A stretch of 64,000 nt of DNA from a virus (IMGVR_UViG_3300031873_001030), one strand, 5' to 3'; shown: positions 3,441 through 41,696, counted from the first letter of the stretch. A program made the numbers and translations. Notes: a model not told the origin generated them from the letters alone.

Positions 3441-4010
3441 ATGAAGACAATAGAAGTAGAAATAAAAGGTCCTATTTTGCTGATGCATAATCCGAAGTCT
3501 ATGCTAGACCCACAGACTACTGGAACGAAATCATCAACTGCGAAATATGACTATAATGTCGAAGCAGAGAAGTCTGCTTACAAGACGAAAAAAAATGAAT
3601 TATATATTCCTGCCCAAGCTATGTTCAGTTCCACATTGAATGGAGCTTCTTTCAAGAAAGTAGGAAAATATACTGCCAAGAGCATTATAGCTGGCAATAT
3701 GAGAATAGAGCCAGAAGAAATCCTGATTCTAGATAGCAAAGGGAAAGTCATGACAAAATATGAGATAGACTTGAGGACTGTGGTTATTGCTCAAGGTAAG
3801 AAAAGAAACCGAATAGTCAGGGCAAGAGCTATGGTAAAGGATTGGAGTGCTAGATTCAGAATAGTCTATAACGACCAATTCATAGGCGACCCTGCTATAA
3901 TAGAAGATTGCTTGAAGGATGCAGGTTCAAGGATAGGTCTGTTGGAATACAGACCACAGACAAGTGGAAGCTACGGAACATTTGAGATAGTGAAATTCAA
4001 GGTGATATAA
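3441..4010 (+). CDS. hypothetical protein, translationally coupled to the ParB-like gene
   Basis: ORF track; AAGGTGA upstream; stop abuts ATG 4011. Confidence 0.65.
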   Translation: MKTIEVEIKGPILLMHNPKSMLDPQTTGTKSSTAKYDYNVEAEKSAYKTKKNELYIPAQAMFSSTLNGASFKKVGKYTAKSIIAGNMRIEPEEILILDSKGKVMTKYEIDLRTVVIAQGKKRNRIVRARAMVKDWSARFRIVYNDQFIGDPAIIEDCLKDAGSRIGLLEYRPQTSGSYGTFEIVKFKVI

Positions 4011-4895
4011 ATGGCACTATGGGATAGGGAAGAAAGAAAGCATACGGAAAATAAAGTATTGCCACTCAAGGATATAGTATTTGATGAGAACATATATCCA
4101 AGACAAAGTTCATGGTGGCAAACTTCGTATAAATATGCCGAAGAGATGAAAGCAGGCGCAAGGTTTCCTCCAATCACAGTAGGTTTTGTGAATGGAAGAT
4201 ACGTGCTTGTGGATGGGAAGCATAGGAATGACGCACTTCTGATGAATAAGGAGACACATACATCAGTAGTAGTTCTCTATGGTTACACTTTGGATGAACT
4301 CTATATTGAAGCTGTAAAACTCAATAGGGCTCACGGTGTAGGACTTACTTCTTTCGACAAGGTCAAGATAATCAAGAGACTTGAAGATATGAAATATTCA
4401 TTGGGAGACATAGCCACGATAGTCCAGATTCCTTTGGGAAGCATAGAGAAATTTGTAGCACAGAGGATTACGTTAAATCCATTAGGACAAGTCACAGTAT
4501 TGAAATCTCCTCTCAAGTTTATGGCAGGAGGAACTATAACGATGACTGACGAAGAGCAAGATACTCTAAGTGTGAGGAGTGAGATAAGTCTGGTAAATCA
4601 GATGACACAGATATTCTCAAATCCGAAGATGCTAAGGGTTGATATAACATTCGTTGATGCTATCGAGAAGCTTTACCAACTGATTCAAGATTTCCTCAAA
4701 GAACAGAAAATTTTGAATGGAGCTGGAAATACAATAGAAGAAGTTCCAAAAGAGAAAATATACAAGAAAAGAGGAAGACCTAAGAAAATCAAGACTGAAA
4801 GTGAGACTTCAGAACCAAAGAAAAAGGGAAGACCTAAAGGTTCTAAGAACAAGCTTAAAGAACTTGATGTCAGTAACGTCAAAGAACAAGCATAA
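4011..4895 (+). CDS. ParB/Srx-fold (ParB-like nuclease domain) protein with two C-terminal AT-hooks
   Basis: N-terminal LPLKDIVFDENIYPR ... RFPPITV ... YVLVDGKHR matches the ParB N-domain pattern (DGxHR). C-terminal KKRGRPKK and KKKGRPKGSK are AT-hook cores. Confidence 0.7.
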   Translation: MALWDREERKHTENKVLPLKDIVFDENIYPRQSSWWQTSYKYAEEMKAGARFPPITVGFVNGRYVLVDGKHRNDALLMNKETHTSVVVLYGYTLDELYIEAVKLNRAHGVGLTSFDKVKIIKRLEDMKYSLGDIATIVQIPLGSIEKFVAQRITLNPLGQVTVLKSPLKFMAGGTITMTDEEQDTLSVRSEISLVNQMTQIFSNPKMLRVDITFVDAIEKLYQLIQDFLKEQKILNGAGNTIEEVPKEKIYKKRGRPKKIKTESETSEPKKKGRPKGSKNKLKELDVSNVKEQA

Positions 4896-4944
4896 ATAGT
4901 TAATCAGTTAGACTTTATTTGGAAAGAATGAAGCAGGGTTTAGT

Positions 4945-5015
4945 GACAACGAACCTCAGAGATAGAACTTACTGATTCTTAGAATCAGTTGGTTCTTACT
5001 GCGAGGTTCGTTGTC
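4945..5015 (+). repeat. 71-nt imperfect-hairpin element, copy 1 (candidate structured RNA or DNA cruciform site)
   Basis: Outer 13-bp stem GACAACGAACCTC/GAGGTTCGTTGTC, inner stems AGAAC/GTTCT and ACTGATTCT/AGAATCAGT; 50 nt after the ParB-like stop. Confidence 0.8.
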
Positions 5016-5431
5016 ATAGTTCCTTCCCTCTTCATACTTTCTTTAATATTAGGGAATTTATAAAAACTGTAGGTTTTTATTATGAGATAAGGTTCGGTTG
5101 GGTCAGTTGGGGTGGGTTCCGTTCCGATATGGTATGGTAAGATTATATTTATTGGACGTGGTAGGATAGGGTAGGATGCGATATGGTATTGTTACTTGTT
5201 CCGATATGGTTCGGTGATTTGGGGTTAGGTTAGGTCTGTTCCGATAGGGCAAGGTATGGTATTTTATTTATTCGATACGGTTCGGTTTGGTGGGTTTGGG
5301 TTAGGCAAGATAAGATAGGGTTAGACAAGGTATCTTACTTTTGTATCCGATTGGGTAAGGTCTGGTAGTATTCGGTCCGTTGTGGTTAGGCACGATATGG
5401 TGTGGTAAGGTTTGACATTTATAGTCAGTCA

Positions 5432-5491
5432 TTAACATATGATAAAGAGTTGGACCCAGTGCACGGGTGGCATTCCATTAACATATGTTAA
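5432..5491. repeat. palindrome pair (5432-5445 TTAACATATGATAA with 1 mismatch; 5478-5491 perfect) enclosing a 32-bp GC-rich insert
   Basis: Read directly; insert agagttggacccagtgcacgggtggcattcca is 19/32 G+C. Confidence 0.9.
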
Positions 5492-5525
5492 TGAGAAAAG
5501 ATAAGAAATAATGTAAAATGATAAT

Positions 5526-5798
5526 ATGAAGAAGATAAAGGAAGAATTTTGCTTTCGCAGGAATGATACTAGAACTTCATATGATATGCAGAAAGGCTAT
5601 CTGATATATGGCAAGATTGATGACATTTATAATATCATCACTTACAATCTATTTGAGATGTGGAATACTACAAAGTGTTTTAAAAGGTTTAGGAAATTGT
5701 TCGTCACTACTTCAAATCACGAATGGATACATTATCTTGTTCCAGATATAAAAGATGGAAGTCTGATGAAGAAGATTGAAAATTGGTTTAACTGGTAA
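5526..5798 (+). CDS. hypothetical protein embedded in the GGTNN tract
   Basis: ORF track; bracketed by a 42-bp perfect direct repeat that contains the palindrome. Confidence 0.45.
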   Translation: MKKIKEEFCFRRNDTRTSYDMQKGYLIYGKIDDIYNIITYNLFEMWNTTKCFKRFRKLFVTTSNHEWIHYLVPDIKDGSLMKKIENWFNW

Positions 5799-5822
5799 AA
5801 TGTATCGTTAACCAAAATTCCA

Positions 5823-5836
5823 TTAACATATGTTAA
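5823..5836. repeat. TTAACATATGTTAA palindrome (within the 42-bp direct repeat 5817-5858 = 5472-5513)
   Basis: Read directly. Confidence 0.95.
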
Positions 5837-5881
5837 TGAGAAAAGATAAGAAATAATGAAAATCAAAAAGAGGTAAAAAAA

Positions 5882-5989
5882 ATGAGATACTATTGCCGAG
5901 AACATAAGGAAAGTTTTGAGACTACTGTCTGCTTTCTTCAACATGTTCTTAAGGAACACCATAGCATATTTGACATCACAAGTGAATAG
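5882..5989 (+). CDS. 35-aa Cys/His-containing peptide
   Basis: ATG 5882 lies 45 nt after the palindrome; translation MRYYCREHKESFETTVCFLQHVLKEHHSIFDITSE; below the track cutoff. Confidence 0.3.
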   Translation: MRYYCREHKESFETTVCFLQHVLKEHHSIFDITSE

Positions 5990-6151
5990 ATATTTATGTG
6001 ATGAGGTGGGGTCAAGTCAGGTCGGTTCTGGTTGCGATACTGACCTTATCACACCAAACCTCACCTTACCAGGGTTCGATAAGTTGTGATTTGGTAGGAT
6101 AGGGTAAAGTTATTTATATTTGAAACACGTAATTATATGTCAAGGAAGTCT

Positions 6152-6223
6152 GACAACAAACCTCAGAGTTGGAACTTTCTGGTTCTAAAAAATCACTTAG
6201 TTCTTTCTGCGAGGTTTGTTGTC
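6152..6223 (+). repeat. imperfect-hairpin element, copy 2
   Basis: Outer stem GACAACAAACCTC/GAGGTTTGTTGTC. Confidence 0.8.
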
Positions 6224-6949
6224 TTTGTATCGACTTTATCATTCGGTCAGGTAAGGCGGGTTCAGGTGGGGTATAGTTTCGGTTCGGTATGGTAGTTTGA
6301 CATTTATACGATACGGTAAGGTGAGGTTTGGAAGATAGTCTTTATGATTCGGTAAGGTGGGGTCAGTTGCGATTGTGTGAGGTTTGATTTGGTTTGGTCT
6401 GATTTGGTAGTTTGAGGCAAGGTAAAGTTAATTCCTTTTATATGATAAGGTATGGTCTAATTCGGTCTGGTTTGGTTGGATGGGCTACGTTCCGATAAGG
6501 TTCGGTATGGTAATATGACACTTATACGATTAGGTTCGGTCAGGTAAGGTTGGGTCAAATGCGATTAGGTAAGATGAGGTTCGGTCAGATACGGCAAGAT
6601 ATGGTATAATATTTATTCGGTTAGGTGAGGTCAGTTTAGGTCTGGTCTGATGTAGTTTGGCATGGTAGTATAACACTTATCGGTTTGGTTCGGTATGATG
6701 CGATATGGTCAGATTCGGTTTGATATGGTAGTATGACACTTATTGGTCAGGTTTAGTAGAATATGGTAAGGTTCGGTTCGATACGGTGGGATATGGTCAG
6801 TTAGGATTTGGAAAAGGAGAGAATAGTTTCAAGAAAGAATCAGCCCTTGGGTGAGTCCCTTGAAATGAAAAATGCCGCACCAGAGATGGTGATATTAGGT
6901 AAACTAATATAAATCAAGGTTCGAACCGTCCGTTAGGCAACGGTTCTCT

Positions 6950-7020
6950 GACAACAAACCTCAGAGTTAGAACTTACTGGTTCTTGAAATCAGTTGGTTC
7001 TTTCTGCGAGGTTTGTTGTC
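6950..7020 (+). repeat. imperfect-hairpin element, copy 3
   Basis: Outer stem GACAACAAACCTC/GAGGTTTGTTGTC; preceded by hairpin GAACCGT..ACGGTTC (6923-6946). Confidence 0.8.
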
Positions 7021-7201
7021 TTCCTCCAAAAAATTACTTATTCGATAGGGTAAGGATAGGTATGCTATGTCAGGGTCAGGTTTGGTTAGGTTTGATATGG
7101 TATGGTAAGGTAATTTAATACTTTTGCTTTGGTGCAATATGGTAATATTCGGTAGGGTATAATTCGGTGGGTTCCGTTAAGGTATGGTAAGGATTATATT
7201 T

Positions 7202-7321
7202 ATGAAATACGTATATAGGAATAGAGATGATGAAAGGGAACTTAAATTTGAAGTTCCAGATAGTATGTCAATAGCTGAAGCATTTGAATTTGCAGAAAGG
7301 AAATGCGCCAGCATGGAGTGA
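7202..7321 (+). CDS. 39-aa hypothetical peptide inside the GGTNN tract
   Basis: Only non-repetitive, protein-like composition in this part of the tract (MKYVYRNRDDERELKFEVPDSMSIAEAFEFAERKCASME); weak. Confidence 0.3.
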   Translation: MKYVYRNRDDERELKFEVPDSMSIAEAFEFAERKCASME

Positions 7322-7672
7322 TTATAATTTTTGGTCTGGTAGGGTGCGATTAGGTACGATTGGGTTTGGTCAGATAGGATATGATATGGACTATTGTAAT
7401 TTTCGGTTAGGTGCGGTTAGGTCTGGTTTGGTGCGTTCGAGGTGTGGTCAGATAGGATATGGAACTTTCATTCGTACTTTTCGGTAGGGCATTATTCGGT
7501 CCGATATGGTCTGGTCAATTCCGCTCTGGTTCGGTTAGATAGTGTATGGTGATATATGTTAAGTCGTGGTTTGGTTCGGTCTGGTAGAATGAGGTTTATC
7601 TTTTTTGATAGGCTATCGTTCGGTCTGGTGAGGTATGGTTCGGTAGGGTTCGGCAAGGTTTAATCCTTTTAG

Positions 7673-7787
7673 GAAAGGGTCTTTGATTCATTCCCTTTCT
7701 ATAAAAGATTTATCCCACGTCTTCGGGATTTATCCCTTCTTTCAGAAGGGATTTATATATCACCGAATCTCGTTTTAAACGAGATTC
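7673..7787 (+). promoter_or_regulatory. cluster of four hairpins (7673-7699; 7707-7758 double ATCCC/GGGAT unit; 7765-7787 GAATCTCGTTT/AAACGAGATTC)
   Basis: Inverted repeats read directly. The GATTTATCCC-N6-8-GGGATTTAT unit recurs at 25703 and 43483. Confidence 0.6.
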
Positions 7788-7963
7788 ACAAAGAACTTGT
7801 GGTCGGGTCTGATACGGCAAGGTGTGATACGGTAAGATAAGATTGGGTTATGGTCTGGCAAGGAACTTTTTACTTATATGGTTTGGCACGGTCCATTCCG
7901 TTGCGTTTAGGTGTGGTAAGGCTTGGTATGGTTACGATTTATTTGGCGTAACATATGTAATAC

Positions 7964-8632
7964 GTGTATTTAAGGTTTCTTATGTATAGTTATGCTATGG
8001 CAAAAGATGAGAATAGGGAAATAAACGTCAGTGGAAAGACAATTGCCTTAATCCTTATGGTAATCATTACAATATTTTCAGTAGGCAGTCTGATAGTAGC
8101 CATAAATGATAAAGGTCAAGCTTCCTCAGATTCAACTAGCTGGCAGAACAAATATACAACTTGCAGTTCTGGATTAAGCTCTTGCAACTCTCAACTAAGC
8201 TCTTCTCAATCAAGCTCCTCTTCATGCGCTTCACAACTCAATACTTGCAATAGCAACCTTGATTATTATCAGAACACAGGAGGAACTTGCAGTTCAGATT
8301 TGAGCAATTGCAATGCCAATTATAATACCTGCAATGCCAATCTTAACAATTATAAGACACTTTATTCTAATTGCGGTGGCAGTCTGACTAACTATCAGAC
8401 ACTTTATTCTAACTGCCAGTCAAGCTATTCTACTTGTAATTCTAATTTCAATACTCTGACTTCCACTTACAATTCTCTGAAGTCAAATTCTGATGTCATG
8501 GCACAGAATTATGCCAGTATGAAATGCTGTCCAAGCTGGCCATCCACCAAATACAGCTATTACTATACAAGCAATGGAAATGTCTATTGCACTGATACAG
8601 CAACAGCAAGCACAAAACTTACAGGATGCTAA
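7964..8632 (+). CDS. membrane-anchored Ser/Asn/Cys-rich low-complexity protein
   Basis: ORF track; TM helix TIALILMVIITIFSVGSLIVAI followed by recurring C-N-S/A-N-(L/Y/F) motifs; start may be ATG 7982. Confidence 0.6.
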   Translation: MYLRFLMYSYAMAKDENREINVSGKTIALILMVIITIFSVGSLIVAINDKGQASSDSTSWQNKYTTCSSGLSSCNSQLSSSQSSSSSCASQLNTCNSNLDYYQNTGGTCSSDLSNCNANYNTCNANLNNYKTLYSNCGGSLTNYQTLYSNCQSSYSTCNSNFNTLTSTYNSLKSNSDVMAQNYASMKCCPSWPSTKYSYYYTSNGNVYCTDTATASTKLTGC

Positions 8633-11186: not shown

Positions 11187-12039
11187 AGTCACATTTGCAG
11201 TCTGCGCATACAATGAGGAAAAGATTATCGCAGAATGTCTGAGACACATAAAGAACGTCGATTATCCTAACAAGGAGATAATAGTCGGAAGCGATGGGAC
11301 TGACAGGACAACTGAGATAGCACAAAATATTGGTGGTGTGGAAGTCATATCATCTGGAGAGAGGCTTGGAAAGACTCAGATGCTGATGAAGATAATAGAG
11401 CAAGCCAAAGGAGATATAATAATCATAAATGATGCTGAATTTTTCCTATTTCCAAATGACGCTGTCTACAAGATTGTAGAAAGTTTTGAGAACGAAAGGA
11501 TAGGAGGATTGTCATTTGGCTCTTCAGCTCCTCATGAGATTGACTTCACAAATTGGTGGGGACTCGTGGAACACGTGATACAGGACATATTCAGATATCA
11601 TAGGATGAAAAAGAACCCACTCACGTCATTGAAAGATGCTAATTTTATCATCGTAGCAAATGCTTTCAGAAAGGATATCATAACAAAGCTTGAGACGATA
11701 AATGATGATGCTGAGATAGGATATCAATTACTGTCTAAAAATCATTATCTGCTATATGTCCCTTCAGTCAGTTTCTATACACCTGGAGGTTCTGCAAAGA
11801 ACATAAAGGATAATATAAACCAGAGGTCAAGGACTGCAGTAGGATGGATACAGATAGGAAAGTTGTATAAGATAAACTTCTTGAGATTCTATATAATCTC
11901 TTTCTGGATGATTGTCAAACTGATATTCAGCCTGATAATCTGGACTGGAGTATTCATATTCAGCTACCTGAAAGGAAGATTCCTCTACATCATAGGCAGA
12001 AGGTCTTCAAAGCAAGTATGGACAAAGGTAAGAAGATGA
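11167..12039 (+). CDS. family-2 glycosyltransferase with C-terminal membrane helices
   Basis: VTFAVCAYNEEKII...YPNKEIIVGSDGTDRT and IIINDAEF (DxD-like) match the GT2 pattern. Confidence 0.8.
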   Translation: MINVLPKVTFAVCAYNEEKIIAECLRHIKNVDYPNKEIIVGSDGTDRTTEIAQNIGGVEVISSGERLGKTQMLMKIIEQAKGDIIIINDAEFFLFPNDAVYKIVESFENERIGGLSFGSSAPHEIDFTNWWGLVEHVIQDIFRYHRMKKNPLTSLKDANFIIVANAFRKDIITKLETINDDAEIGYQLLSKNHYLLYVPSVSFYTPGGSAKNIKDNINQRSRTAVGWIQIGKLYKINFLRFYIISFWMIVKLIFSLIIWTGVFIFSYLKGRFLYIIGRRSSKQVWTKVRR

Positions 12040-12374
12040 GAAAAAAATTCAATTATGAAAACTATTACAAGAAATATTATGAAAGTCATAAGGATAAGCA
12101 CTTGTATTATGTCAATGAATGGAAGAAGAAGCATAAAGATAGTGTAAGAATTTATTCCAAACGTTATTCCAAAAGTTGGAGATTGAGAAACAAAGAAAGA
12201 TTGAAGAAAACTTCAAAAAGATATTATGACAGGCATATCAGAAGTTCTTGGTTCGATAGGATATTTGGTTTCAAATGCAAAGTATGCGGCAAGAGATATA
12301 AAGATAAAAAGGCTTTGGGTGGGCATACCACATATTGTAAAAGAAAAAGGATTGAACTTATTAACATATGTTAA
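12018..12374 (+). CDS. basic Tyr/Lys-rich protein with C-terminal CxxC...HxxxC zinc finger
   Basis: ORF track; stop codon inside palindrome 12361-12374. Confidence 0.5.
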   Translation: MDKGKKMRKKFNYENYYKKYYESHKDKHLYYVNEWKKKHKDSVRIYSKRYSKSWRLRNKERLKKTSKRYYDRHIRSSWFDRIFGFKCKVCGKRYKDKKALGGHTTYCKRKRIELINIC

Positions 12375-12411
12375 AAAGATTGCATGCAGATAACTTCTTA
12401 ACATATGTTAA
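12361..12411. repeat. palindrome pair (12361-12374, 12398-12411) enclosing a 23-bp insert
   Basis: Read directly; insert aaagattgcatgcagataacttc. Confidence 0.95.
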
Positions 12412-12446
12412 TTGCTCGGAAATTCCGAAAAGCAGAAGGTAATGAC

Positions 12447-12995
12447 ATGGACCCATTGTGGAACAAGAAATTAGAGATAATAAAGAAGCATGGTATAGAC
12501 AATGCTATTTTGGATTTAGGATGCAACATAGGTGACTTCTCCTCATATTTCGTGAGAAATGGATATGATGTGACTGGCGTCGACATAGACAATGAAAATT
12601 TGCTCATAGCAAACAGCAGAGGGATACATACGAAAAAATGCAATCTGAATCTGAAATTGCCTATGAAAAGCAATTCATATCCTACCATCTTCGCATTGGA
12701 GATAATAGAGCATCTCATCAATCCAGACAATGTCATAAAGGAAGCGCATAGACTGCTCAAAGATGGCGGGAAGTTTTATGTGTCAGTCCCATACTTCGGA
12801 CTAGTAAAAAGAACAGCGATATCGCTGTTCTTTTTTGATGATGTCTTTCTATATAATGGTCCGCATATAAGATTTTTCTCTGAAAAATCTTTCCGTAATA
12901 TATTGACAAAAAATGGATTCAAGATTCTCAAGATTTATAAACTTGGAAGATTCTATCCAGTCTATATGGACATGCTTGCCGTATGCTCTAAATAA
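12447..12995 (+). CDS. class I SAM-dependent methyltransferase (Methyltransf_11-like)
   Basis: ILDLGCNIGDF motif I, LEIIEHL, LKDGGKFYVSVP. Track start 12405 is the ATG inside the palindrome; ATG 12447 preferred. Confidence 0.75.
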   Translation: MDPLWNKKLEIIKKHGIDNAILDLGCNIGDFSSYFVRNGYDVTGVDIDNENLLIANSRGIHTKKCNLNLKLPMKSNSYPTIFALEIIEHLINPDNVIKEAHRLLKDGGKFYVSVPYFGLVKRTAISLFFFDDVFLYNGPHIRFFSEKSFRNILTKNGFKILKIYKLGRFYPVYMDMLAVCSK

Positions 12996-13353
12996 GCAAT
13001 ATGCCTACTACAATCAATAACGAAAGCATTACGAAATTTATAAATCTCGAAGAATCAAATGAGATATTCTTCCCATTATACCAAAGGAATACAAAAGGTG
13101 ACATCCAGAAAAAATGTTTGTGCTTCAGTATGAACAGAGTATCTTCAAGAGTAAATTTGCTATGCCTCAAATCTTCTTTATAATCCTTTATGAAACTTTT
13201 TTCTACCAGATGCTTTTCCTCATGCTTTCTGAGCCTTAAGAACAAGCTTCTATTTTTTTTTAGAAATGGTTCCATGTAGATATTGCCATCTTCGACATAG
13301 GCTATGTTGAACGGGTCAAGCTTCTTATAGATAATCTGGTATTTCAAAGTCAT
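12988..13353 (-). CDS. hypothetical protein with C-terminal TM helix
   Basis: ORF track; start of the minus-strand block. Confidence 0.5.
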   Translation of the reverse strand: MTLKYQIIYKKLDPFNIAYVEDGNIYMEPFLKKNRSLFLRLRKHEEKHLVEKSFIKDYKEDLRHSKFTLEDTLFILKHKHFFWMSPFVFLWYNGKNISFDSSRFINFVMLSLLIVVGILLI

Positions 13354-13583
13354 TTATCATCATCAGAATCTTTTGTAAACAGAATTCCCAGATATTTCAA
13401 TCTATCTTCCTCTATTCTTTCAAATCTCAATCTTGTATTTCCAAGCCTGTATACTTCATGGTTGGTGCTATAGTTGTAAAACATGAACCTCAATTGGAAT
13501 TGTTCCAAATCTTTTTTCCCATATAATCTTCCTATCTCAAGTTCATTGTCATCCATCATTTCCTTTCTCCTATACATGAGCAA
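13350..13583 (-). CDS. hypothetical protein
   Basis: ORF track; 4-nt overlap with the downstream gene. Confidence 0.45.
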   Translation of the reverse strand: MLMYRRKEMMDDNELEIGRLYGKKDLEQFQLRFMFYNYSTNHEVYRLGNTRLRFERIEEDRLKYLGILFTKDSDDDK

Positions 13584-13723
13584 TTTTCACAAATCCAATA
13601 CATTGAATTTTTCATTTTGTCATGCCTTATTTTTATGCATTTATTTATGCAGGCAGACTTCCCACAGATGACACATGCTGCCAAAGCTGTCCTTTCGGCT
13701 CTACATATTTCACATGCCATTTA

Positions 13724-14488
13724 TTATCCTTTCCAATTATAATAATTTTTGCAATCATCTTTTGATTCGCACTGTTGGCATGATGTATCATCCTTATCAA
13801 AAAGTGTGAAGCAGTCATGAAAAGGTGGTCTCTTTATTATTTTTTTATTGCCCATGAACAATCCTAATTCGACCAATCTATCTGAACATTCGCTATCTTT
13901 AGCAGATATCACTTCTTCTAATTTGATTTTAAATAGCGCTAGCAAGACCATCGCTTGTCCTCTTTCTTTGCTCTCTCCTTTTGGAAAGTGCTTGTCCAGT
14001 TCATCAATAAGTTCTTCTATTACATTTGCAGACAAGATTTCAGAACAAGGATGCTGTTCTGTCCCTCTTGTTTTACAGGATGAATTGTTTGGGTTATCTG
14101 ACTTGCCTTTCAAAAAATTATTACGAACCTTTTTGAAATCATTAATCTCACCTTCAAGAGCTATGCCTCCGCTCCAATGTAATTGCTTCAGTTTTCTCAT
14201 GTTTTCCAATCTCTTGATTTCACTGTCCAGAATCTTAATTACATTGTCTTTTGCAATTCTTTTTTCATATCTGCTTGGATTGAATGAACACTTTTCCCAG
14301 CTCCTTACTTTCCCATCATTATATTCTCCATCCTCAGAAGTTCCGCATATCAAATCACAATGCAGGGCGACTAATCCCAAATCATTATCAGCATGTTTGC
14401 AACTGCCACAAGTCATCAGTTCTTCTTTGTTGCAACTTTTTATTATTATTTTTTTCATATTCATTTTCATTTTTTCATCTTCTGTCAT
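13724..14488 (-). CDS. Cys-rich hypothetical protein
   Basis: ORF track; preferred over the low-complexity antisense ORF 13848..14588. Confidence 0.55.
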   Translation of the reverse strand: MTEDEKMKMNMKKIIIKSCNKEELMTCGSCKHADNDLGLVALHCDLICGTSEDGEYNDGKVRSWEKCSFNPSRYEKRIAKDNVIKILDSEIKRLENMRKLKQLHWSGGIALEGEINDFKKVRNNFLKGKSDNPNNSSCKTRGTEQHPCSEILSANVIEELIDELDKHFPKGESKERGQAMVLLALFKIKLEEVISAKDSECSDRLVELGLFMGNKKIIKRPPFHDCFTLFDKDDTSCQQCESKDDCKNYYNWKG

Positions 14489-14822
14489 ATTTCACTACAA
14501 CAACTGTTTTGTTTTTCATAACGGCAGTAGCGATAGTATGTGCTGTTCCATAACTCCAACCATCCCAGAACGCAATGACAATATTTGAATCATTTACCAT
14601 TTCAATATTCCTTTTGAGATAATTGCCACTATCAGCAGGGAAATGTTCTATTTCAATATTATTCTCTCTTGCATATTCTTCTGCATATTCGTCAGCACTA
14701 TTCTTACAACAACCTTCAATAATTATGTCATCTTTATGCAAATGACATTTCAATGTATCAAATACTAATTCCTTATAAGATTCTTTCGTTCTTGTTCCAC
14801 ATATCAAGACTTTATTCATCAT
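14475..14822 (-). CDS. SLOG-fold / DUF2493-like protein
   Basis: VLICGTR...IIIEGCCKNSADEYAEEYA...AFWDGWSYGTAHTI matches the DUF2493 pattern (G.R...G...GaD...FWdG.S.GT) from memory. Confidence 0.55.
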   Translation of the reverse strand: MMNKVLICGTRTKESYKELVFDTLKCHLHKDDIIIEGCCKNSADEYAEEYARENNIEIEHFPADSGNYLKRNIEMVNDSNIVIAFWDGWSYGTAHTIATAVMKNKTVVVVKYDRR

Positions 14823-15055
14823 TTCACCTTTCTTTTTTTCTTATTCAAAGGCATCAAGTCATTCGTACCAATAGCAAAATAACCCATCTTTATCATAGGC
14901 GTGCTGTCTCGCAATATCTTTTTGGGATTATTCTTGTCAGCATAGATTGTAGTATTTCCAAATTGCCCTACTATCATGTCTTCACTTTCAAATGTCTCTA
15001 TCCTTGTATTTTTCACCCTCTCTATGAAATCCTTTAATTCTAATTTTATATCCAA
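14819..15055 (-). CDS. hypothetical protein
   Basis: ORF track; overlapping stop/start chain. Confidence 0.45.
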   Translation of the reverse strand: MDIKLELKDFIERVKNTRIETFESEDMIVGQFGNTTIYADKNNPKKILRDSTPMIKMGYFAIGTNDLMPLNKKKRKVK

Positions 15056-15059
15056 ATCA

Positions 15060-15419
15060 TTACCTCTTTAATTTCTTTTTTCGAAAGAAGGCATTGTCAT
15101 AAGTGCAATTCCATTCTGGTTTTCCAACGAGATAAAATCGTTCCTTGCTCAACTTGCCTCTTTTATATTTCTTCTTTTCAATCTTTCCGTAATGATAGCA
15201 TTTGCCTTCATCAAGGACATCATTGACCACATGCCAGAATTTCCTGAACATCAGATTTGCAGGCTTGTCCATATAATTAATCTTCAACCAATGCTGCATA
15301 TTCTTGTTCATCATGAAGAATCCCATGTCAAACATGGCTCTCAATTCATCTTCAGATATCGGTATCTGCAACCAATCCATATTTTTGTCATCAACTATGT
15401 TAATCGTCACTCTCTTCAT
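15060..15419 (-). CDS. hypothetical protein
   Basis: ORF track. Confidence 0.5.
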   Translation of the reverse strand: MKRVTINIVDDKNMDWLQIPISEDELRAMFDMGFFMMNKNMQHWLKINYMDKPANLMFRKFWHVVNDVLDEGKCYHYGKIEKKKYKRGKLSKERFYLVGKPEWNCTYDNAFFRKKKLKR

Positions 15420-15682
15420 AAGATATTCGCTCCTAGATTTCCTATGTTGAGTGCAAGTTTTTCACATCGCAGCCCATCATCAGTCACATCTATCACTTTA
15501 TATAATACTCCATTTTTATCCATGATTACTTTTCCGATATAGTTCTGCTTGTTGACTCTCATGTCTTTCAGCACTTCTGAAGTTATCGAACTCATGTCAA
15601 GAAATCCTCTTATATCATTTTTTTCTGTCCTTGCTCCAAAAATAATCCTTATGTCTCCCATATCATTCATCCTCCAACTCAT
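15416..15682 (-). CDS. hypothetical protein
   Basis: ORF track; 4-nt overlap. Confidence 0.45.
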   Translation of the reverse strand: MSWRMNDMGDIRIIFGARTEKNDIRGFLDMSSITSEVLKDMRVNKQNYIGKVIMDKNGVLYKVIDVTDDGLRCEKLALNIGNLGANIL

Positions 15683-15765
15683 TCAAATCCTTGTCAAATT
15701 CATATATGGCATTCTCATCTTCTGGCATGCACCATTTTTTCAAGAACTTTTTTAATTTCATTTAA

Positions 15766-15984
15766 TCAACCCTGGCAATAATGTCTTGTTCTCTTCTCAC
15801 CTTTGAAAATCCTTCTCGCTTTCCATATTTCCCGATTCTTGTTTACGACGAAGTTCAGGTATTCGCCATCATTATCCATCTTCTCCAAGTCAGCACAAAG
15901 CATGTTCTCATGATATGGACATGGATAATAGTTTCCTCCGCTTGTCCTGCATCCGCAGGCAAAGTCTGTTCCGATTTGAATCAC
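15766..15984 (-). CDS. small Cys-rich protein
   Basis: ORF track. Confidence 0.45.
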   Translation of the reverse strand: MIQIGTDFACGCRTSGGNYYPCPYHENMLCADLEKMDNDGEYLNFVVNKNREIWKARRIFKGEKRTRHYCQG

Positions 15985-16499
15985 CTAAGCTTTCGTATCT
16001 TGACTTCGATGAATGTCTCGGCATCGAAAAACTTTCCAAACTTCAGAGGAATCCATATTATCTTCCCTCTTTTTCCCATCTGACCCACCTTACATCTAAA
16101 ACTTATTTCATTTATCATAAAATATATTAGTTTCATTAGAATATAAAGTTTTAAATTCAATTATAATACAGCAAATAGAAGTGACAATTATACCAAACCC
16201 AAGTTGAGTCACTGAAATGAGGATTTATAGTTCAATCCAATCTTTACAATTTCCACAGAAGTCTCCACCACTCTTACAGCTTCCATCATAAAAATTTTTA
16301 CAACTACTGCAGCATCTCAAGTTTTAACCTATTTTTAGCTTCTTCTTCCAACTTACATATTTCATTTATCGTATACATCACAATAACCTCCACATCTTCA
16401 ATCTGACAGCGAGTTTATACATATTATGCCAAAACCAACTGCCTTCATTCTTTCTCGCAAACATATATATTCCAACATATGTTATCAATGACATAATTG

Positions 16500-16775
16500 T
16501 AAACCACAGATTACCAGACCATACCCGAACCTATAAGACCACATCACACCTGAGCGAAAAGTGTTAACCATACCACATCAGACTTTATCATGCCTTACCA
16601 GTCCTTAACATATCGTAACTTACCACAACGTAGCATAAATGACAATCCATATCTTACCACACACCAACATATCTTACCAAAACCCACCCTAACCCATCTA
16701 ACCCAATCATAAATATAATCCCTATCTTACCAAATCCCATCACAACGGACCCTACCAAATCAGACCCCGTTAAAT
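16500..16775 (-). repeat. GGTNN pentanucleotide tract on the minus strand (NNACC on +)
   Basis: 5-nt reading ttacc agacc atacc ... accaa aaccc accct aaccc; lies downstream (sense) of minus-strand gene 16869..17171. Confidence 0.8.
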
Positions 16776-16803
16776 AATTATAAGTTTCCCTTTAAAGAAA
16801 CAT

Positions 16804-16826
16804 GGAAGAGGACTTGTTCCTCTTCC
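16804..16826 (-). terminator. hairpin GGAAGAGGA-cttgt-TCCTCTTCC, 43 nt downstream of the 16869..17171 stop
   Basis: 9-bp perfect stem read directly, followed on the minus strand by a T-rich stretch. Confidence 0.5.
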
Positions 16827-16868
16827 CAACCAAATAATACCTTCTTGCCCTCTAAGTCAGTTACTTCT

Positions 16869-17171
16869 TTATCGAATAAAAACGTCGAAAGCTTTTGCCT
16901 TTCGTCCGCTTTTAGTTGAAACTAGACCCTTGAAGACAATTTTCAGTTCCTGACCAATTTTCACTGAACCCATCTGTCTCTCTAAAATCATAGAACCAAA
17001 GACAGTTCTGACTTTTCCAGTGTTGTCTTTGATGTCGTAGACTCTGGACTTACTTCCATCTGGCCTGAAGTAATTTCCATCTCGAATTTGCATGAGAGTT
17101 CCTTCCAGTGAGTCGTCTTCATTTTCGAATCTGAATATTTCTCCACTTGTAGATTGCCAATTTCCTGGCAT
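16869..17171 (-). CDS. hypothetical beta-rich protein (possible OB-like fold; speculative)
   Basis: ORF track; first gene of the minus-strand block. Confidence 0.55.
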   Translation of the reverse strand: MPGNWQSTSGEIFRFENEDDSLEGTLMQIRDGNYFRPDGSKSRVYDIKDNTGKVRTVFGSMILERQMGSVKIGQELKIVFKGLVSTKSGRKAKAFDVFIR

Positions 17172-17440
17172 GAATTATCAACTCCATTATTAATTAATAG
17201 AAACTATCAGTCTCTATCTAGATTATTTCATAACTTGGGAATAGTCTAGAATACAGACAAGCTCTTCAGTCTATATAAACATAATTGAAATCTGTGAGAT
17301 AAACTTCAGAAACTTTATCTCATGACTTATATCTTTCAAGATAAAGTTTCCCTGATAGAAAAGAGTATTTATAATCAAACATCAATATAATGACCGATAG
17401 CTTTTTAAAGCTATGCTTTATGTGATAAAGGAGAATAGGA

Positions 17441-17638
17441 ATGATAATAGACTATGGCAAGTTGAAAGGAAAGAAAGTGAAATTGTTATGCGTATTTGAA
17501 GGTCTGAGTCAGACTATCTATTACGATGGCATAATACTAGATTCATCTGAAGTCAATAAGGTTGTGACCATATCAGATAGATTTAGCAAGACAGTTCACA
17601 TTGATATGGATAGTATAAAACAAGTGGTAGAGTTATGA
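17441..17638 (+). CDS. small beta-rich protein (possibly Sm/KOW-like; speculative)
   Basis: ORF track; AAGGAG upstream. Confidence 0.45.
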   Translation: MIIDYGKLKGKKVKLLCVFEGLSQTIYYDGIILDSSEVNKVVTISDRFSKTVHIDMDSIKQVVEL

Positions 17639-17742
17639 TTGAGAGAAAGAAAGACAGAACAAAGGTGGATAACCATTAGTCCTGCCCTTCATCTGTATAA
17701 GATATTGCTTTTTCTAGTATATAAGTCTTACTTGGTGGTATT

Positions 17743-18933
17743 ATGACGTTGAAGAATCTTGTAACGCCATTGGAACTTAAGACTCTCTGGGATTCTGAAT
17801 ATTACAAATCAATATTGACAGCTACAGCTAGCAGCTGCCAATTTGGAAGGATAAGAGAACACCAACGTAATAATACATTCAAAGAAATCAGAGCCAATCT
17901 GAATGCTCTGATAGTTGGAGAATATGGAATTGGGAAATCCACAATGTTGGACATTAAGAATGTCCCAATAGTCAGGGCTAATACAGTTTCAGTTGCTGGA
18001 CTAGCTGGAACTACGACAAGAAGTGGGGAACACGTTATTGGAGCTGCATATAAAGCTAATAATAAATTACTAATTATAGATGACGTTGGTAGTGGTGAAA
18101 ATTCTTATATAGATAATTCTGTAAAACGATGCATGAATCTGCTATTGGAACCTCCGCATACTTTTTCACGAATGTTAGGATTTAAGATGAACATTCCTGT
18201 GAAAGAGAAGAAGGGTGGAGCTTGGGTGAAAGGAAGTGAGAATCAGTTTACATTGCGTTCTAAGTTCAGTTGCATCGTAGCTACAACATCAGTTGTAATT
18301 CGAAATACTGATGACAAAGCTTGGATGTCAAGATTCGTACCAGTAAAACTACATGGTAGTGTGGATTACATGTTTGAATTTTTATCTGGTTCTAATCCAT
18401 TTACAATTACTGGTTTGAATCGGAAAGTCAAGTTATTTGAATTTCCAGATTATCTGGAATTCTTGGAATTCTATGAAGAACATTTTCGTGGAAGTCTGTG
18501 GGAGAAAAGCATAATAGAAAAGGAAGATGAAGTCGGTTCTATAGCGAGAAATACTGGTGACTTGGTAAGATTGGCTGCTTTCAATTGCGCTGTCGATGAT
18601 AGAATAAATATAGAATTTGAAGATGCCAAGAAAGTTTTTGATAGGTTCTACAATCAGATATGGTTCAATATCCAAGTTGGACCACTGACTCATGAACAAT
18701 ATAGAGTTCTATTACTTCTCAATAAGAAGTTGACTGAAGATGAGATAGCAGAAACTATACAAAGGTCACAGCCTTACGTATCTAAGATGATAGAGAAATT
18801 TGAAAGTAAGGGAATACTTGTAGACAGAAAAGTTGCGAAAGAAGTTGAAAACTTTAAACAAACTTCATGGGAAAAACTCGAACCACAGCAGACTTTATCA
18901 GAATCTGTAAAGTTAGATGGTAGTCATGAGTGA
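17743..18933 (+). CDS. MCM-like AAA+ ATPase with C-terminal winged helix-turn-helix
   Basis: Walker A VGEYGIGKST, Walker B LLIIDDVG, sensor-1-like CIVATTS, Arg-finger-like MSRF (MCM SRFD), and C-terminal LTEDEIAETIQRSQPYVSKMIEKFESKGIL. Confidence 0.65.
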   Translation: MTLKNLVTPLELKTLWDSEYYKSILTATASSCQFGRIREHQRNNTFKEIRANLNALIVGEYGIGKSTMLDIKNVPIVRANTVSVAGLAGTTTRSGEHVIGAAYKANNKLLIIDDVGSGENSYIDNSVKRCMNLLLEPPHTFSRMLGFKMNIPVKEKKGGAWVKGSENQFTLRSKFSCIVATTSVVIRNTDDKAWMSRFVPVKLHGSVDYMFEFLSGSNPFTITGLNRKVKLFEFPDYLEFLEFYEEHFRGSLWEKSIIEKEDEVGSIARNTGDLVRLAAFNCAVDDRINIEFEDAKKVFDRFYNQIWFNIQVGPLTHEQYRVLLLLNKKLTEDEIAETIQRSQPYVSKMIEKFESKGILVDRKVAKEVENFKQTSWEKLEPQQTLSESVKLDGSHE

Positions 18934-24479: not shown

Positions 24480-24527
24480 TGTCAAATTAGAAATGCAATA
24501 CGATTGTTAACAAGAAAGTTAACAAAG

Positions 24528-24598
24528 TCTCACCTGCCAGAATTGCACCAGCATCTACGAGGCTACAGCTCGTTGTTCTACTGTTGAACTAAGGCGAG
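24528..24598 (-). tRNA. tRNA-Tyr (GTA)
   Basis: Hand fold CTCGCCT-TA-GTTC-AACAGTA-GAAC-A-ACGAG-CTGTAGC-CTCGT-AGAT-GCTGG-TGCAATT-CTGGC-AGGTGAG-A; C1-G72 as in archaeal/eukaryal tRNA-Tyr. Confidence 0.75.
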
Positions 24599-24601
24599 TT
24601 G

Positions 24602-24674
24602 TGGGGATGCTGAGATTTGAACTCAGATTATTCGCTTCCAGAGCGAAGGTTCTAACAAGTTATACTACATCCCC
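24602..24674 (-). tRNA. tRNA-Pro (TGG)
   Basis: Acceptor GGGGATG/CATCCCC, anticodon arm TTCGC-TCTGGAA-GCGAA, T arm CTGAG-TTCAAAT-CTCAG. Confidence 0.85.
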
Positions 24675-24677
24675 AAG

Positions 24678-24751
24678 GGAGAATAGAGGGATTTGAACCC
24701 TCTCTAACAAGTTCACAGCTTGACGTGCTCGCCTACTACACCATATTCTCC
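24678..24751 (-). tRNA. tRNA-His (GTG) with genomically encoded G-1
   Basis: G-GAGAATA...TATTCTC-C, D stem GTGT/GCAC, anticodon loop CTGTGAA, T arm GAGGG-TTCAAAT-CCCTC. Confidence 0.8.
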
Positions 24752-25212
24752 ATTTTATTATGTTCTTCTCTATGGCAATTTGCACATAGAAGTTTGCATT
24801 TCTGCAATTCTTTTCGTATCACCTCGAGACTATTATGCCATATTCTGGATATTTCATATTTCTTTTCTCCGTTCATATGATGAAATTCAAGTGCTGCGAA
24901 ACATTTGTTATATCCACATTTTTGACATTTACCTCCAAATTCCATTTTCATAATTTTTGTTTTTTCTTGGTTTTTACGCTTTTGTGCTATATACCACAAA
25001 TGTCTCTGAGGGAGAGATGATTTTTGTTTATGTTGTTTTATATATTTTCTCATATATTCTCTATGATATTTTTTCCTTTTTTCTCTGTTTTCAGGGTTTG
25101 ACAACCAAATTTTCCATCGTTCTTTTTCTTGCTCACGGTGTGATTTTCTATATAATCTATTTATTTCACACAATCGTTCTTTGTTTTTTTCATAATATTT
25201 TTTACTGGTCAT
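24736..25212 (-). CDS. HNH endonuclease with N-terminal basic Tyr/Lys-rich region, inserted in the tRNA cluster
   Basis: CQKCGY...LEFHH...N...CANCHREEH; its 3' end overlaps tRNA-His by 16 nt. Confidence 0.8.
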   Translation of the reverse strand: MTSKKYYEKNKERLCEINRLYRKSHREQEKERWKIWLSNPENREKRKKYHREYMRKYIKQHKQKSSLPQRHLWYIAQKRKNQEKTKIMKMEFGGKCQKCGYNKCFAALEFHHMNGEKKYEISRIWHNSLEVIRKELQKCKLLCANCHREEHNKMENMV

Positions 25213-25255
25213 ATAATGTAATTGTTTAATACCATTTATATTTGTTGTTGAACTA

Positions 25256-25330
25256 CGCTCTGGGCAAGACTCGAACTTGCAATTTCTCCGTTAACAGCGG
25301 AGCGCTTGTACCTGTTTAAGCTGCCAGAGC
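25256..25330 (-). tRNA. tRNA-Asn (GTT)
   Basis: GCTCTGG-CA-GCTT-AAACAGGTAC-AAGC-G-CTCCG-CTGTTAA-CGGAG-AAATT-GCAAG-TTCGAGT-CTTGC-CCAGAGC-G. Confidence 0.85.
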
Positions 25331-25333
25331 AAG

Positions 25334-25437
25334 TACTCCCCGAATGATTCGAACATTCGTCTCTTGGTTTCTCCAAGTTTCAGATTCTTGTTGAAATTAT
25401 CAAAGCCAAGCATCTTTGTCCACTGGACGAGGGGAGT
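25334..25437 (-). tRNA. tRNA-Gln (TTG) with a ~31-nt intron after position 37
   Basis: Acceptor ACTCCCC/GGGGAGT (A1-U72); anticodon stem CTTGG/CCAAG enclosing CTTTGA-[intron]-A; T arm GAATG-TTCGAAT-CATTC. Confidence 0.65.
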
Positions 25438-25466
25438 ATATTGATTGTAGTTCTTTTTAAAAACTA

Positions 25467-25538
25467 TGGACACAAGCGGGAATCGAACTCGCATCTCTTT
25501 CTTGCAAGGGAAGTATCCTACCATTAAACGATTGGCCC
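25467..25538 (-). ncRNA. degenerate tRNA-like element (Ala TGC-like anticodon loop CTTGCAA) with mismatches in the acceptor, anticodon and T stems
   Basis: GGGCCAA...TTGTGTCCA pairs at only 5 of 7 acceptor positions (2 mismatches). Anticodon stem CTTCC/GAAAG and T stem GCGAG/CCCGC each carry an A-C mismatch. Confidence 0.35.
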
Positions 25539-28299: not shown

Positions 28300-28599
28300 A
28301 TGGGAATGTTTGATTATGTATTGGCAGATTTCAAATGTCCTTACTGCAAATTTATTGTTGCACAAGAAAGCATGCAGAAAAGTGTAAACACTGGGGAATA
28401 TGACACATGGCAAACAAAAGATTTGAGTTGCGGTTTGAGGATAATAAAGGTTGGTGACAAGATAAAATTAAGTGGGATGCATATCGGAAAAGGATTCCTA
28501 AACATTCATCACATATGCCCAAAATGCGACAAGCTTGTCGAAGCAAGAATCAAAATAAAGAATTACAAGCTTACAAACAAAAAGAGATACATAATATGA
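28300..28599 (+). CDS. zinc-ribbon protein (CPYC...CPKC)
   Basis: ORF track. Confidence 0.55.
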   Translation: MGMFDYVLADFKCPYCKFIVAQESMQKSVNTGEYDTWQTKDLSCGLRIIKVGDKIKLSGMHIGKGFLNIHHICPKCDKLVEARIKIKNYKLTNKKRYII

Positions 28600-28844
28600 A
28601 CTTTGAAGACTCATCAAGAGAAAGGATAGAATCCATGAAGAAATTAAAGGACGAATTTTTAGAGGAAGTATTCAAGAAATTTGGAATGTCCAAAACTGGA
28701 AGTAATGATATCTATAAGGTGAAGGACATGTCAATAGGTATCGTTAGAGATGAACTATATCAAGTGTTCAGAAAATTGGCAAAGCAGGAATTGCGAAATA
28801 CCTTTACTAAATTATGCAAGGAAATAGATGGTGATGAAGATTAA
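28596..28844 (+). CDS. hypothetical protein (ATG 28596 overlaps the previous stop; track start 28515 is less likely)
   Basis: ATATGA overlap; in frame with the track ORF. Confidence 0.45.
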   Translation: MNFEDSSRERIESMKKLKDEFLEEVFKKFGMSKTGSNDIYKVKDMSIGIVRDELYQVFRKLAKQELRNTFTKLCKEIDGDED

Positions 28845-29322
28845 GCAATACAAGATAGTCTATCCAAAAGAGTTTGAGGTCAACGAAACTTGGGGAAAAT
28901 CATTTGTTTTTCCATTTGAACCATTGGATTTGTCAAATAAGCCAGATAGCTTGGGAAGAATTGAGTGGCATATAGAACTTGTAATGGATAAGAAAAAGAG
29001 CAAGGTCAGCAAATCATTTTCAAAATATTACATAAAGGAATTGTGGGTATTTGCCACACAGACAAAAGATAAGAGGTACATAGGTAAAATATTCAAGATA
29101 CCGTGCCATACAGAAACTCTTACTGCTTCTTCTTTCCATCCTGAGGACTATTTGAACAACTTATGGAAATTCACATTCTGCGATGAGCACAAGAACCCAC
29201 TCTTTTCTGCATATCCAAAAGATGAGCACAAATATTTTGTGATTGATGCATCAAGTTCCATTTCAATAGAACCAAAATTCATGTCAAAATTACCTGTTAA
29301 AGATGTACTGCATAAGAGTTAG
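28828..29322 (+). CDS. hypothetical protein
   Basis: ORF track. Confidence 0.5.
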   Translation: MVMKIKQYKIVYPKEFEVNETWGKSFVFPFEPLDLSNKPDSLGRIEWHIELVMDKKKSKVSKSFSKYYIKELWVFATQTKDKRYIGKIFKIPCHTETLTASSFHPEDYLNNLWKFTFCDEHKNPLFSAYPKDEHKYFVIDASSSISIEPKFMSKLPVKDVLHKS

Positions 29323-34623: not shown

Positions 34624-34694
34624 GACAATGAACCTCAGAGTAGGAACCAACTGGAAAGTGGAATCAGCAAGTCATAACTGCGAGGTTCATTGTC
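34624..34694 (+). repeat. imperfect-hairpin element, copy 4
   Basis: Outer stem GACAATGAACCTC/GAGGTTCATTGTC; starts 2 nt after the stop of 33906..34622. Confidence 0.75.
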
Positions 34695-35408: not shown

Positions 35409-35490
35409 TGTGATGAGTTAGGGTCCGATGGGGTAAGTTAGGATATTGTGAGGTCGGATGTGGTATGTTTGGTGAGGTAAGGTATGGTCC
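35409..35490 (+). repeat. short GGTNN tract filling the intergenic gap
   Basis: gttag ggtcc gatgg ggtaa gttag ... ggtga ggtaa ggtat ggtcc gatat ggttt. Confidence 0.7.
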
Positions 35491-35502
35491 GATATGGTTT
35501 AA

Positions 35503-40978: not shown

Positions 40979-41090
40979 GACAGAATCAAAATCAGTGACT
41001 TATGTTTCTTATGAGGATAATCCAGATGAAAAGGAAATGAGAGACTATATTTTGAAGACATTGAACTTTAGAGGTGACTTTCTTTTATGA
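40959..41090 (+). CDS. 43-aa peptide
   Basis: Overlaps both neighbours (ATGA at 41087). Confidence 0.3.
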   Translation: MKSVNIRTESKSVTYVSYEDNPDEKEMRDYILKTLNFRGDFLL

Positions 41091-41671: not shown

Positions 41672-41696
41672 ACTTTGATTACCAATTATTATGACA

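Follow-up and report, generated by a model that had tools for sequence, protein, structure and literature searches.

Pentamer-repeat tracts on a probably archaeal virus or plasmid are very likely vrRNA genes of a VIPR system, with detached units at three remote sites

VIPR (Viral Interference Programmable Repeat) is a CRISPR-like RNA-guided DNA-binding system described in 2026 (10.64898/2026.04.26.720920, 10.64898/2026.04.26.720927). It comprises a RAMP protein of about 190 aa (Vipr), an accessory gene with a DNA-related function (vap; classes vap1 to vap6), and vrRNAs of 9 to 16 GGY/NN pentamers, and its seven types are hosted mostly by phages and archaeal viruses (10.64898/2026.04.26.720920). 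Published vrRNA genes flank vipr and usually carry a tail, although array layouts vary and sometimes follow "a related consensus" (10.64898/2026.04.26.720920). Each Vipr protomer takes up one pentamer, with G-G-Y buried and NN presented; the NN dinucleotides pair with double-stranded DNA such that every third target base is skipped, and the R-loop forms at a remote DNA target, not at the vrRNA's own gene (10.64898/2026.04.26.720927). The published vrRNAs are RNAs of about 100 nt that copurify with Vipr, they typically target genes of competing mobile elements, the skipped base falling at the wobble position, and the experimentally characterized Vipr of Escherichia phage SUSP1 reads the second G specifically (VIPR preprints).

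We analyzed a 64,000-nt stretch of DNA (IMGVR_UViG_3300031873_001030), here called the window, from an element that is probably an archaeal virus or plasmid. It contains about 30 vrRNA-like units with a G/T-rich sense strand, about 25 of them downstream of vipr and a ParB-like gene and 6 remote, and we regard it as very likely that these tracts are the vrRNA genes of a VIPR system. The finding is an instance of a known, very recently described system and leaves the published picture otherwise unchanged; the modest new points are remote orphan mini-arrays (one on the opposite strand), the array size, a relaxed second G, short junctions, and a ParB-fold partner. VIPR is a newly reported mode of RNA-guided DNA recognition, proposed to be older than CRISPR, to which the window adds a probably archaeal example. 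The features are as follows.

3441 to 4010, plus strand: vipr, predicted to encode a 189-aa minimal RAMP (Cas7-like) protein, just before the ParB-like gene
4011 to 4895, plus strand: vap-like accessory gene (ParB-like), abutting vipr (last base of the vipr stop codon at 4010, start codon from 4011)
5086 to 7934, plus strand: main array of candidate vrRNA genes, about 25 units of 10 to 17 G-N-Y-N-N pentamers (HMM parse)
6041 to 6070, minus strand: antisense fragment of six pentamers inside the main region (phase test and HMM parse)
16501 to 16766, minus strand: four vrRNA-like units forming an orphan mini-array within a block of minus-strand genes, about 12.5 kb away from vipr
16804 to 16826, minus strand: hairpin (9-bp stem) and T-rich run, likely the terminator of gene 16869 to 17171
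35412 to 35500, plus strand: orphan vrRNA-like unit or units of 11 and 6 pentamers, with a 4-nt phase break between them (HMM parse and phase test)
41693 to 41747, plus strand: orphan vrRNA-like unit of 11 pentamers between 41087 to 41671 and 41764 to 42054, no spacer

The product of 3441 to 4010 has no Pfam match and matches PHROG 4652 (function unknown) over its full length. Its structure, predicted with 25 homologues (pLDDT 86.9, pTM 0.81), is a RAMP fold with the features of a minimal RAMP, namely an RRM core, a glycine-rich loop, and a thumb. For comparison we used the SUSP1 Vipr, picked out in its genome by the flanking tracts and nine published residue positions: a 195-aa protein encoded at 28474 to 29061 on the minus strand, with H17, K33, E71, M72, R138, C173, D177, W178, and R179 at the published positions and with tracts of 14 to 17 pentamers, one upstream and three downstream, whose tails of about 45 nt agree with the publication. 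HHalign of the 26-sequence window family against this protein (AVU07_agp039) gave a probability of 98.4% and an E value of 8.9e-15 over 168 columns (residues 1 to 185), and paired SUSP1 H17, R138, D177, W178, and R179 with window H16, R129, E169, Y170, and R171, of which R129 and R171 are invariant in the window Vipr family. Judged by this alignment, the predicted GGY-contact residues are conserved or conservatively replaced, and we assign gene 3441 to 4010 on sequence grounds as encoding a Vipr, each protomer of which presumably binds one pentamer, as in the published system. No second vipr was found in the window, including near the remote loci, by tblastn or by HHalign against 34740 to 35402 and 12991 to 13353, and the remote units would therefore act in trans.

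The window resembles the type II VIPR of SUSP1 in its minimal RAMP of about 190 aa with full-length homology and retained GGY-contact residues, in the adjacent accessory gene, in the virus-like carrier, and in intergenic same-strand units (10 to 17 pentamers in the window) with G-G-Y conserved and NN hypervariable. It differs in that the second G is degenerate (G > A > T), the pseudoknotted tail of about 45 nt is replaced by AT-rich spacers of 9 to 14 nt, there are about 30 units rather than 4, and six units, including one opposite-strand group, lie 12.5 to 37.7 kb from vipr. A ParB fold and AT-hook-like motifs mark the accessory protein of the window, while the accessory gene of SUSP1 is vap1 (146 aa); the host is probably archaeal, and no targets were identified.

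Pentamer tracts were detected in two ways. A phase test (5 or more GGT in 10 successive pentamer slots required; maximum of 4 in 40 block shuffles) flagged plus-strand segments in the main region (5086 to 5423, 6346 to 6814, 7039 to 7200, 7318 to 7681, and 7801 to 7939) and at remote sites (35451 to 35520 and 41693 to 41752), along with minus-strand segments at 16491 to 16560 and, as a short one, at 6021 to 6090. A five-state HMM, run on both strands of the whole 64 kb, parsed the units and found 22 segments of at least 10 pentamers, versus 1 in total over ten shuffles within 100-bp blocks, which preserve local G/T richness; it placed no units outside the main region and the three remote loci. 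The original prediction had read the NNACC pattern on the plus strand at 16500 to 16775 as GGTNN on the minus strand, which is correct, and ACC occurs there 7 to 10 times per 100 nt compared with a window mean of 0.53. Its two other GGTNN tracts, near 35409 to 35490 and 41697 to 41745 on the plus strand, were recovered by both methods, and the scan for GGTNN-periodic segments that it proposed returned, within the window, the main region, the three remote loci, and one antisense fragment. The share of GGT-to-GGT spacings divisible by 5 is 24% elsewhere in the window but 80% in the main tract and 50, 88, and 100% at the 16.5-, 35.4-, and 41.7-kb loci, respectively. The remote G-N-Y-N-N tracts of 5-nt period (minus strand, 16501 to 16766; plus strand, 35412 to 35500 and 41693 to 41747) and the 2.9-kb main tract have one common unit grammar, and all lie above local-composition shuffles. 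Since one pentamer profile holds at every locus, we class the three remote loci with the main tract as one type of element, beyond mere G/T-rich DNA; they are assigned to VIPR by unit grammar only and do not adjoin vipr.

In this profile, position 1 is G in 90% of main-array pentamers (90 to 94% over all loci), and position 3 is T or C in 98% (94 to 100% over all loci). Position 2 is G in 50 to 63% (63% in the main array), A in 19 to 36%, and T in 0 to 17%, and positions 4 and 5 show near-maximal variability (1.5 to 1.95 bits; 1.9 bits in the main array). The main array begins 190 nt past the ParB-like gene, on the same strand as vipr, and is divided into six blocks (5086 to 5418, 6000 to 6112, 6245 to 6814, 7044 to 7195, 7333 to 7661, and 7801 to 7934) separated by small ORFs, hairpins, and palindromes. 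The higher-order units are 50 to 85 nt long with conserved junctions of only 9 to 14 nt. The structured tail of about 40 nt seen in SUSP1 is absent from the window units, whose 9- to 14-nt spacers in the main array are instead AT-rich with TTAT (e.g., tatgacacttatac, aatatttattc, and tttgacatttatac). Many units, main and remote, share the 3′ end (A/G)ATGGTA(A/G), with or without GGATT, followed by an AT-rich (ACA)YTTAT spacer, and TTAT lies within 14 nt upstream of 22 of the 31 units, among them 5 of the 7 remote segments parsed, compared with about 10% of random 14-mers. One unit end, GGATT followed by ATATTTATG, is identical at 7195 in the main array and at 16717 in the 16.5-kb locus. Known RNA families or ribozymes between the units were considered, and none were found: Rfam 15 returned only tRNAs at gathering score over the window, and over 4800 to 8100 nothing credible appeared at an E value of at most 5, with no hammerhead or other ribozyme.

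The antisense fragment at 6041 to 6070 is a partial inverted duplicate of the plus-strand unit at 6310 to 6334, with which it shares GGTAAGGTGAGGTTTGG, so a plus-strand transcript of it would be partly complementary to that vrRNA. The fragment could be a relic of inverted duplication or an anti-guide.

The six remote units lie at three sites, 12.5, 31.4, and 37.7 kb from vipr, one site being on the opposite strand. At 16.5 kb, the HMM parse gives minus-strand units at 16766 to 16717 (10 pentamers), 16708 to 16644 (13), 16634 to 16565 (14), and 16555 to 16501 (11), separated by the spacers atatttat, gtcatttat, and acacttttc, and TTAT stands ahead of 3 of the 4. The flanking ORFs and the hairpin at 16804 to 16826 are as originally predicted. 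On the minus strand, the hairpin GGAAGAGGA-CTTGT-TCCTCTTCC gives way to ATGTTTCTTT and then to CTTATAATTATTTAAC directly ahead of the first 16.5-kb unit; the hairpin is context and does not belong to the vrRNA units. Ten nucleotides separate the stop codon of 34740 to 35402 from the start of the 35.4-kb unit, and the unit's 5′ junction, where TCTTTATGT meets GATGAG, equals the junction at 5990 to 6005 in the main region; this unit is possibly processed out of an mRNA 3′ end. The 41.7-kb unit ends in GGTAAGATAA followed by TAAAG, like a main-array end at 5145, and has a candidate promoter box, TTTTATAA, about 29 nt upstream.

The remote tracts might be nonfunctional relics, that is, decayed or hitchhiking fragments of the main array moved by recombination. 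GGY fidelity is 40% at the 16.5-kb locus versus 58% in the main array, because of which some remote units could be decaying copies; the inverted fragment at 6041 to 6070 shows that array pieces get copied, and L015, one of the fetched related loci, lacks the remote loci at the syntenic position. Against this, unit lengths are intact (10 to 14 pentamers) and boundaries are kept, conservation at positions 1 and 3 equals that of the main array, and six of six remote units are in sense orientation, so that we hold relics as the general explanation to be improbable.

All four window loci lie directly 3′ of an ORF on the same strand, as the original prediction had stated, with p = 0.06 for this co-orientation under a coin-flip null. 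Only the 16.5-kb locus is informative for orientation, being on the minus strand within the minus-strand block 12398 to 17171. The further statement that the tracts always follow the local direction of transcription describes these four loci but goes too far as a universal: the fragment at 6041 to 6070 is antisense, and in L015 a minus-strand unit at 13899 to 13968 stands back to back with a plus-strand unit at 14167 to 14231 that is opposed to its minus-strand gene block. Co-orientation with transcription is thus a rule, not a law. Tabulating strand against flanking ORFs, as had been suggested, for 86 clusters with ORFs on both sides at other loci gave 62 clusters with both ORFs on the tract strand, 14 with the upstream ORF only, 8 with the downstream ORF only, and 2 with neither; ORF calls were crude, the 2 last cases are calling artefacts, and the counts are confounded because most clusters adjoin vipr. 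Over 58 nonredundant loci, surveyed within 10 kb on either side, 199 units are on the vipr strand versus 3 on the opposite strand, and 153 of these 202 units are downstream and 49 upstream of vipr.

These counts bear on what kind of role the tracts have. A role at the RNA level, favored originally over a purely DNA-structural one, is borne out by the strand polarity, by the 199:3 ratio, and by the match to vrRNA genes, and the units' sense orientation would follow from their need to be transcribed. The specific suggestion that the remote tracts are 3′-UTR elements or termination or processing signals of the upstream genes fares differently. The 4/4 placement just 3′ of same-strand ORFs and the 10-nt distance of the 35.4-kb unit from a stop codon are what it would lead one to expect, but the units have the grammar of a guide-RNA array, gene 16869 to 17171 has its own hairpin and T-run before the tract is reached, 49 of 202 units in the relatives lie upstream of vipr, one L015 unit is opposed to its neighbors, and the co-orientation reaches only the p value given above; we therefore consider such a role extremely improbable. 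R-loop formation at the tract's own locus, also proposed originally, does not fit, since the vrRNA R-loop lies at a remote DNA target (10.64898/2026.04.26.720927). DNA curvature or histone positioning was set aside by reasoning only: a 5-bp period on one strand alternates between opposite helix faces, and no net bend is expected.

Conservation across genomes ties the tracts to the RAMP gene. By tblastn, full-length Vipr homologues of about 25% identity occur in cultured phages: Pseudomonas phage LESphi2 has three GGYNN tracts directly upstream of its homologue, and Gordonia phage UmaThurman (NC_031249) has a five-unit array directly downstream of its homologue gp39, on the same strand in both cases. 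A profile-guided scan added 53 IMG/VR loci and two archaeal MAG loci (Thermoplasmata and Hadesarchaea). Tracts are present in 68 of the 71 fetched loci with a Vipr homologue, while only 23 of the 71 have a homologue of the ParB-like gene. The UmaThurman gene gp40 (L012 4601 to 4924), annotated as a hypothetical protein, coincides with the five-unit GGYNN array and is probably a mis-called CDS over vrRNA genes. Gene callers thus mis-annotate such arrays as proteins, and metagenome assemblies tend to break there: contigs of relatives often end within the array (L001, L003, L004, L005, L014, and L025), so that array sizes are underestimated. The largest array among the loci examined, at L013 11399 to 15081 (GCA_964352345.1, a 106-kb contig; Vipr 73% identity), packs about 40 units into the 3.7 kb of gene-free DNA that follows vipr and vap.

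The accessory gene at 4011 to 4895 encodes a protein with an N-terminal domain of ParB/sulfiredoxin fold, structurally closest to pNOB8 ParB-N, then a helical domain and a disordered C terminus with two GRP (AT-hook-like) motifs. On sequence, the gene fits the vap role. In the close relatives found through this gene, the tract always follows it, and the pairing of gene and tract is kept down to 40% identity, with the repeat reading GGCNN in GC-rich relatives. The layout in close relatives first suggested a ParB centromere, and the main tract does start 190 nt after a genuine ParB-N-fold gene; short degenerate direct-repeat arrays, moreover, are known centromeres of other partition proteins. 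On such a reading, the tracts would be DNA-level centromeres, parS-like partition sites, or silencing sites for the ParB-like protein, with extra copies scattered over the element. We dropped the idea and now rate it as highly improbable: the tracts follow the RAMP gene, 47 of the 68 tract-bearing loci have no detectable ParB-like homologue, and the SUSP1, LESphi2, and UmaThurman arrays occur without a ParB-like gene; the cassette has no ParA-type ATPase, the neighboring gene being a RAMP and not a P-loop ATPase; the 199:3 polarity relative to vipr is unexpected for a duplex binding site; and a fixed recognition sequence is hard to square with two hypervariable positions in each pentamer. The window shares with ParB-parS and pNOB8-type partition the ParB-N structure and the repeat-rich noncoding DNA beside the gene, but it lacks ParA, and its repeats are direct, strand polar, hypervariable, and track a RAMP gene, whereas parS-type sites, recognized by the ParB HTH, are palindromic or of fixed sequence.

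If the tracts are vrRNA genes, as we prefer, each unit would be transcribed, singly or within a longer RNA, and then trimmed. Transcription would start at AT-rich promoter-like boxes of their own for the 16.5- and 41.7-kb units, whereas the 35.4-kb unit would depend on read-through of the gene ahead of it. By analogy with the described system, one Vipr protomer would cover each pentamer, hiding G-G-Y and presenting the two variable bases; the dinucleotides along the filament would pair with a double-stranded DNA target with each third target base skipped; and the resulting gapped R-loop would keep a competing mobile element from being transcribed. The single Vipr would also act in trans on the remote units.

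We saw no reference to detached ("orphan" or "distal") units in the main text of 10.64898/2026.04.26.720920, and their existence means that surveys made only beside vipr undercount guides and hence targets. A further idea, which we think unlikely though worth stating, is that guide genes have become untied from the effector locus, with TTAT-bounded units spreading to intergenic gaps on either strand and maturing from mRNA 3′ ends or from their own promoters. If true, about 30 guides, spread over the genome as a modular library, would depend on one small Vipr gene, and this would suggest an undescribed form of guide-unit copying or acquisition, e.g., by duplication and transposition of units. 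It is a further possibility that the ParB-fold partner, possibly clamp-like, acts at the RNA-selected targets.

The copying of guide units might be linked to a genome-specific hairpin. This imperfect hairpin of 71 nt, GACAAC(G/A)AACCTCAGAG...CTGCGAGGTT(C/T)GTTGTC, has four copies (4945 to 5015, 6152 to 6223, 6950 to 7020, and 34624 to 34694) with compensatory changes at two stem positions; three copies head vrRNA sub-arrays, and the fourth stands 720 nt ahead of the 35.4-kb unit. None of the 72 other fetched loci carries it, Rfam gives no match to it, and we rejected it as a conserved array component because it is absent from the fetched relatives. It looks like an insertion, since it is missing at the homologous place in L002.

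We searched for targets under the 1-nt skip rule. In the window, the 1-nt skip gave no unit a better match than the controls with 0-, 2-, and 3-nt skips, and self-targeting was set aside; no target in 0.96 Mb of related loci rose above the same controls. Exact-match scans (five viral and two metagenome; patterns of 20 to 24 specified bases) gave no match for the units at 16708, 16634, 16555, 35412, and 6528. The 41.7-kb unit gave one match at 22 of 22 NN positions (11 dinucleotides), in a head-tail adaptor gene (L073 149 to 182, minus strand) of the 32%-GC tailed phage IMGVR_UViG_3300037329_000043. For this AT-rich pattern, about 0.5 to 2.6 matches per 1e11 AT-rich positions are expected by chance, the skipped base is at codon position 1, not the wobble position, and the reversed-pattern control gave 0 matches. 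This match is at chance level, and we have no convincing target.

Two other systems invite comparison. In class 1 CRISPR-Cas, the filaments of Cas7, Csm3, and Cmr4 have a period of 6 nt with 5 informative, as opposed to 5 nt with 2 informative in the window, and the guide is placed beside the repeat, whereas in the window guide information is interleaved with the "repeat." There is no sign in the window of a CRISPR repeat-spacer array (25- to 40-nt repeats with unique spacers of similar length), and Pfam and PHROGs scans of about 40 ORFs found no Cas families save for one subthreshold partial Cmr2-domain match in the ERCC4 nuclease. TRAP is an oligomer that reads (G/U)AG triplets spaced by 2 to 3 nt, with one subunit per repeat. 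It resembles the window in that a trinucleotide RNA motif of about 5-nt period is read by an oligomeric protein; it is unlike VIPR in its unrelated fold, its closed ring acting in attenuation, its uninformative spacers, and its lack of DNA targeting.

The archaeal assignment of the element is probable because it carries a short ERCC4 plus HhH nuclease and an Orc1/MCM-like AAA+-wHTH gene and has two archaeal MAG matches, and because relatives carry Hjc (weak Pfam match) and an ATP-dependent ligase. No capsid or terminase gene was recognized among the ORFs scanned, and Megablast of the first 25 kb against phage records returned nothing near-identical. Gene strand and GC skew switch together at about 12.4 and 17.2 kb, and the Orc1/MCM-like AAA+ gene with a C-terminal winged helix (17743 to 18933) starts just past the latter switch; the region around 12000 to 18933 may contain a replication origin. 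As this gene and a GC-skew switch are near the 16.5-kb tract, replication-origin repeats were considered for it, but the tract is built like the arrays and is missing from the syntenic region of L015.

The palindrome TTAACATATGTTAA occurs in 15 perfect copies, all in the first 25 kb and mostly as close intergenic pairs, with positions at 700, 988, 1575, 1613, 2314, 2359, 2425, 2491, 5478, 5823, 12361, 12398, 24416, and 24466. Two of them bracket a small ORF at 5526 to 5798, and the palindrome also occurs in L002 at 6984 to 7670. It is probably an operator for an element-encoded transcription factor, independent of the pentamer tracts. The near-palindrome reported earlier at 16603 is a match to TTAACATATGTTAA, with two mismatches, inside a repeat unit; it is a separate motif, one of a genome-wide palindrome family, rather than part of the tract.

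A tRNA cluster of four to five genes lies at 24527 to 25538 on the minus strand (Tyr-GTA, Pro-TGG, His-GTG, and Asn-GTT, with a weak Rfam match at 25468 to 25538). At 42939 to 43133, a 48-nt tandem repeat (3.1 copies, 97% identical) is followed by related 24-nt repeats; these have an iteron-like look and overlap a minus-strand ORF at 42573 to 43328. Coding repeats of 102 and 162 nt occur near the window end (62784 to 63700). The ORF at 49389 to 60647 (3,752 aa) has a 75-nt (25-aa) repeat in about 14 copies at 51805 to 52903 and probably encodes a giant repeat-rich surface protein.
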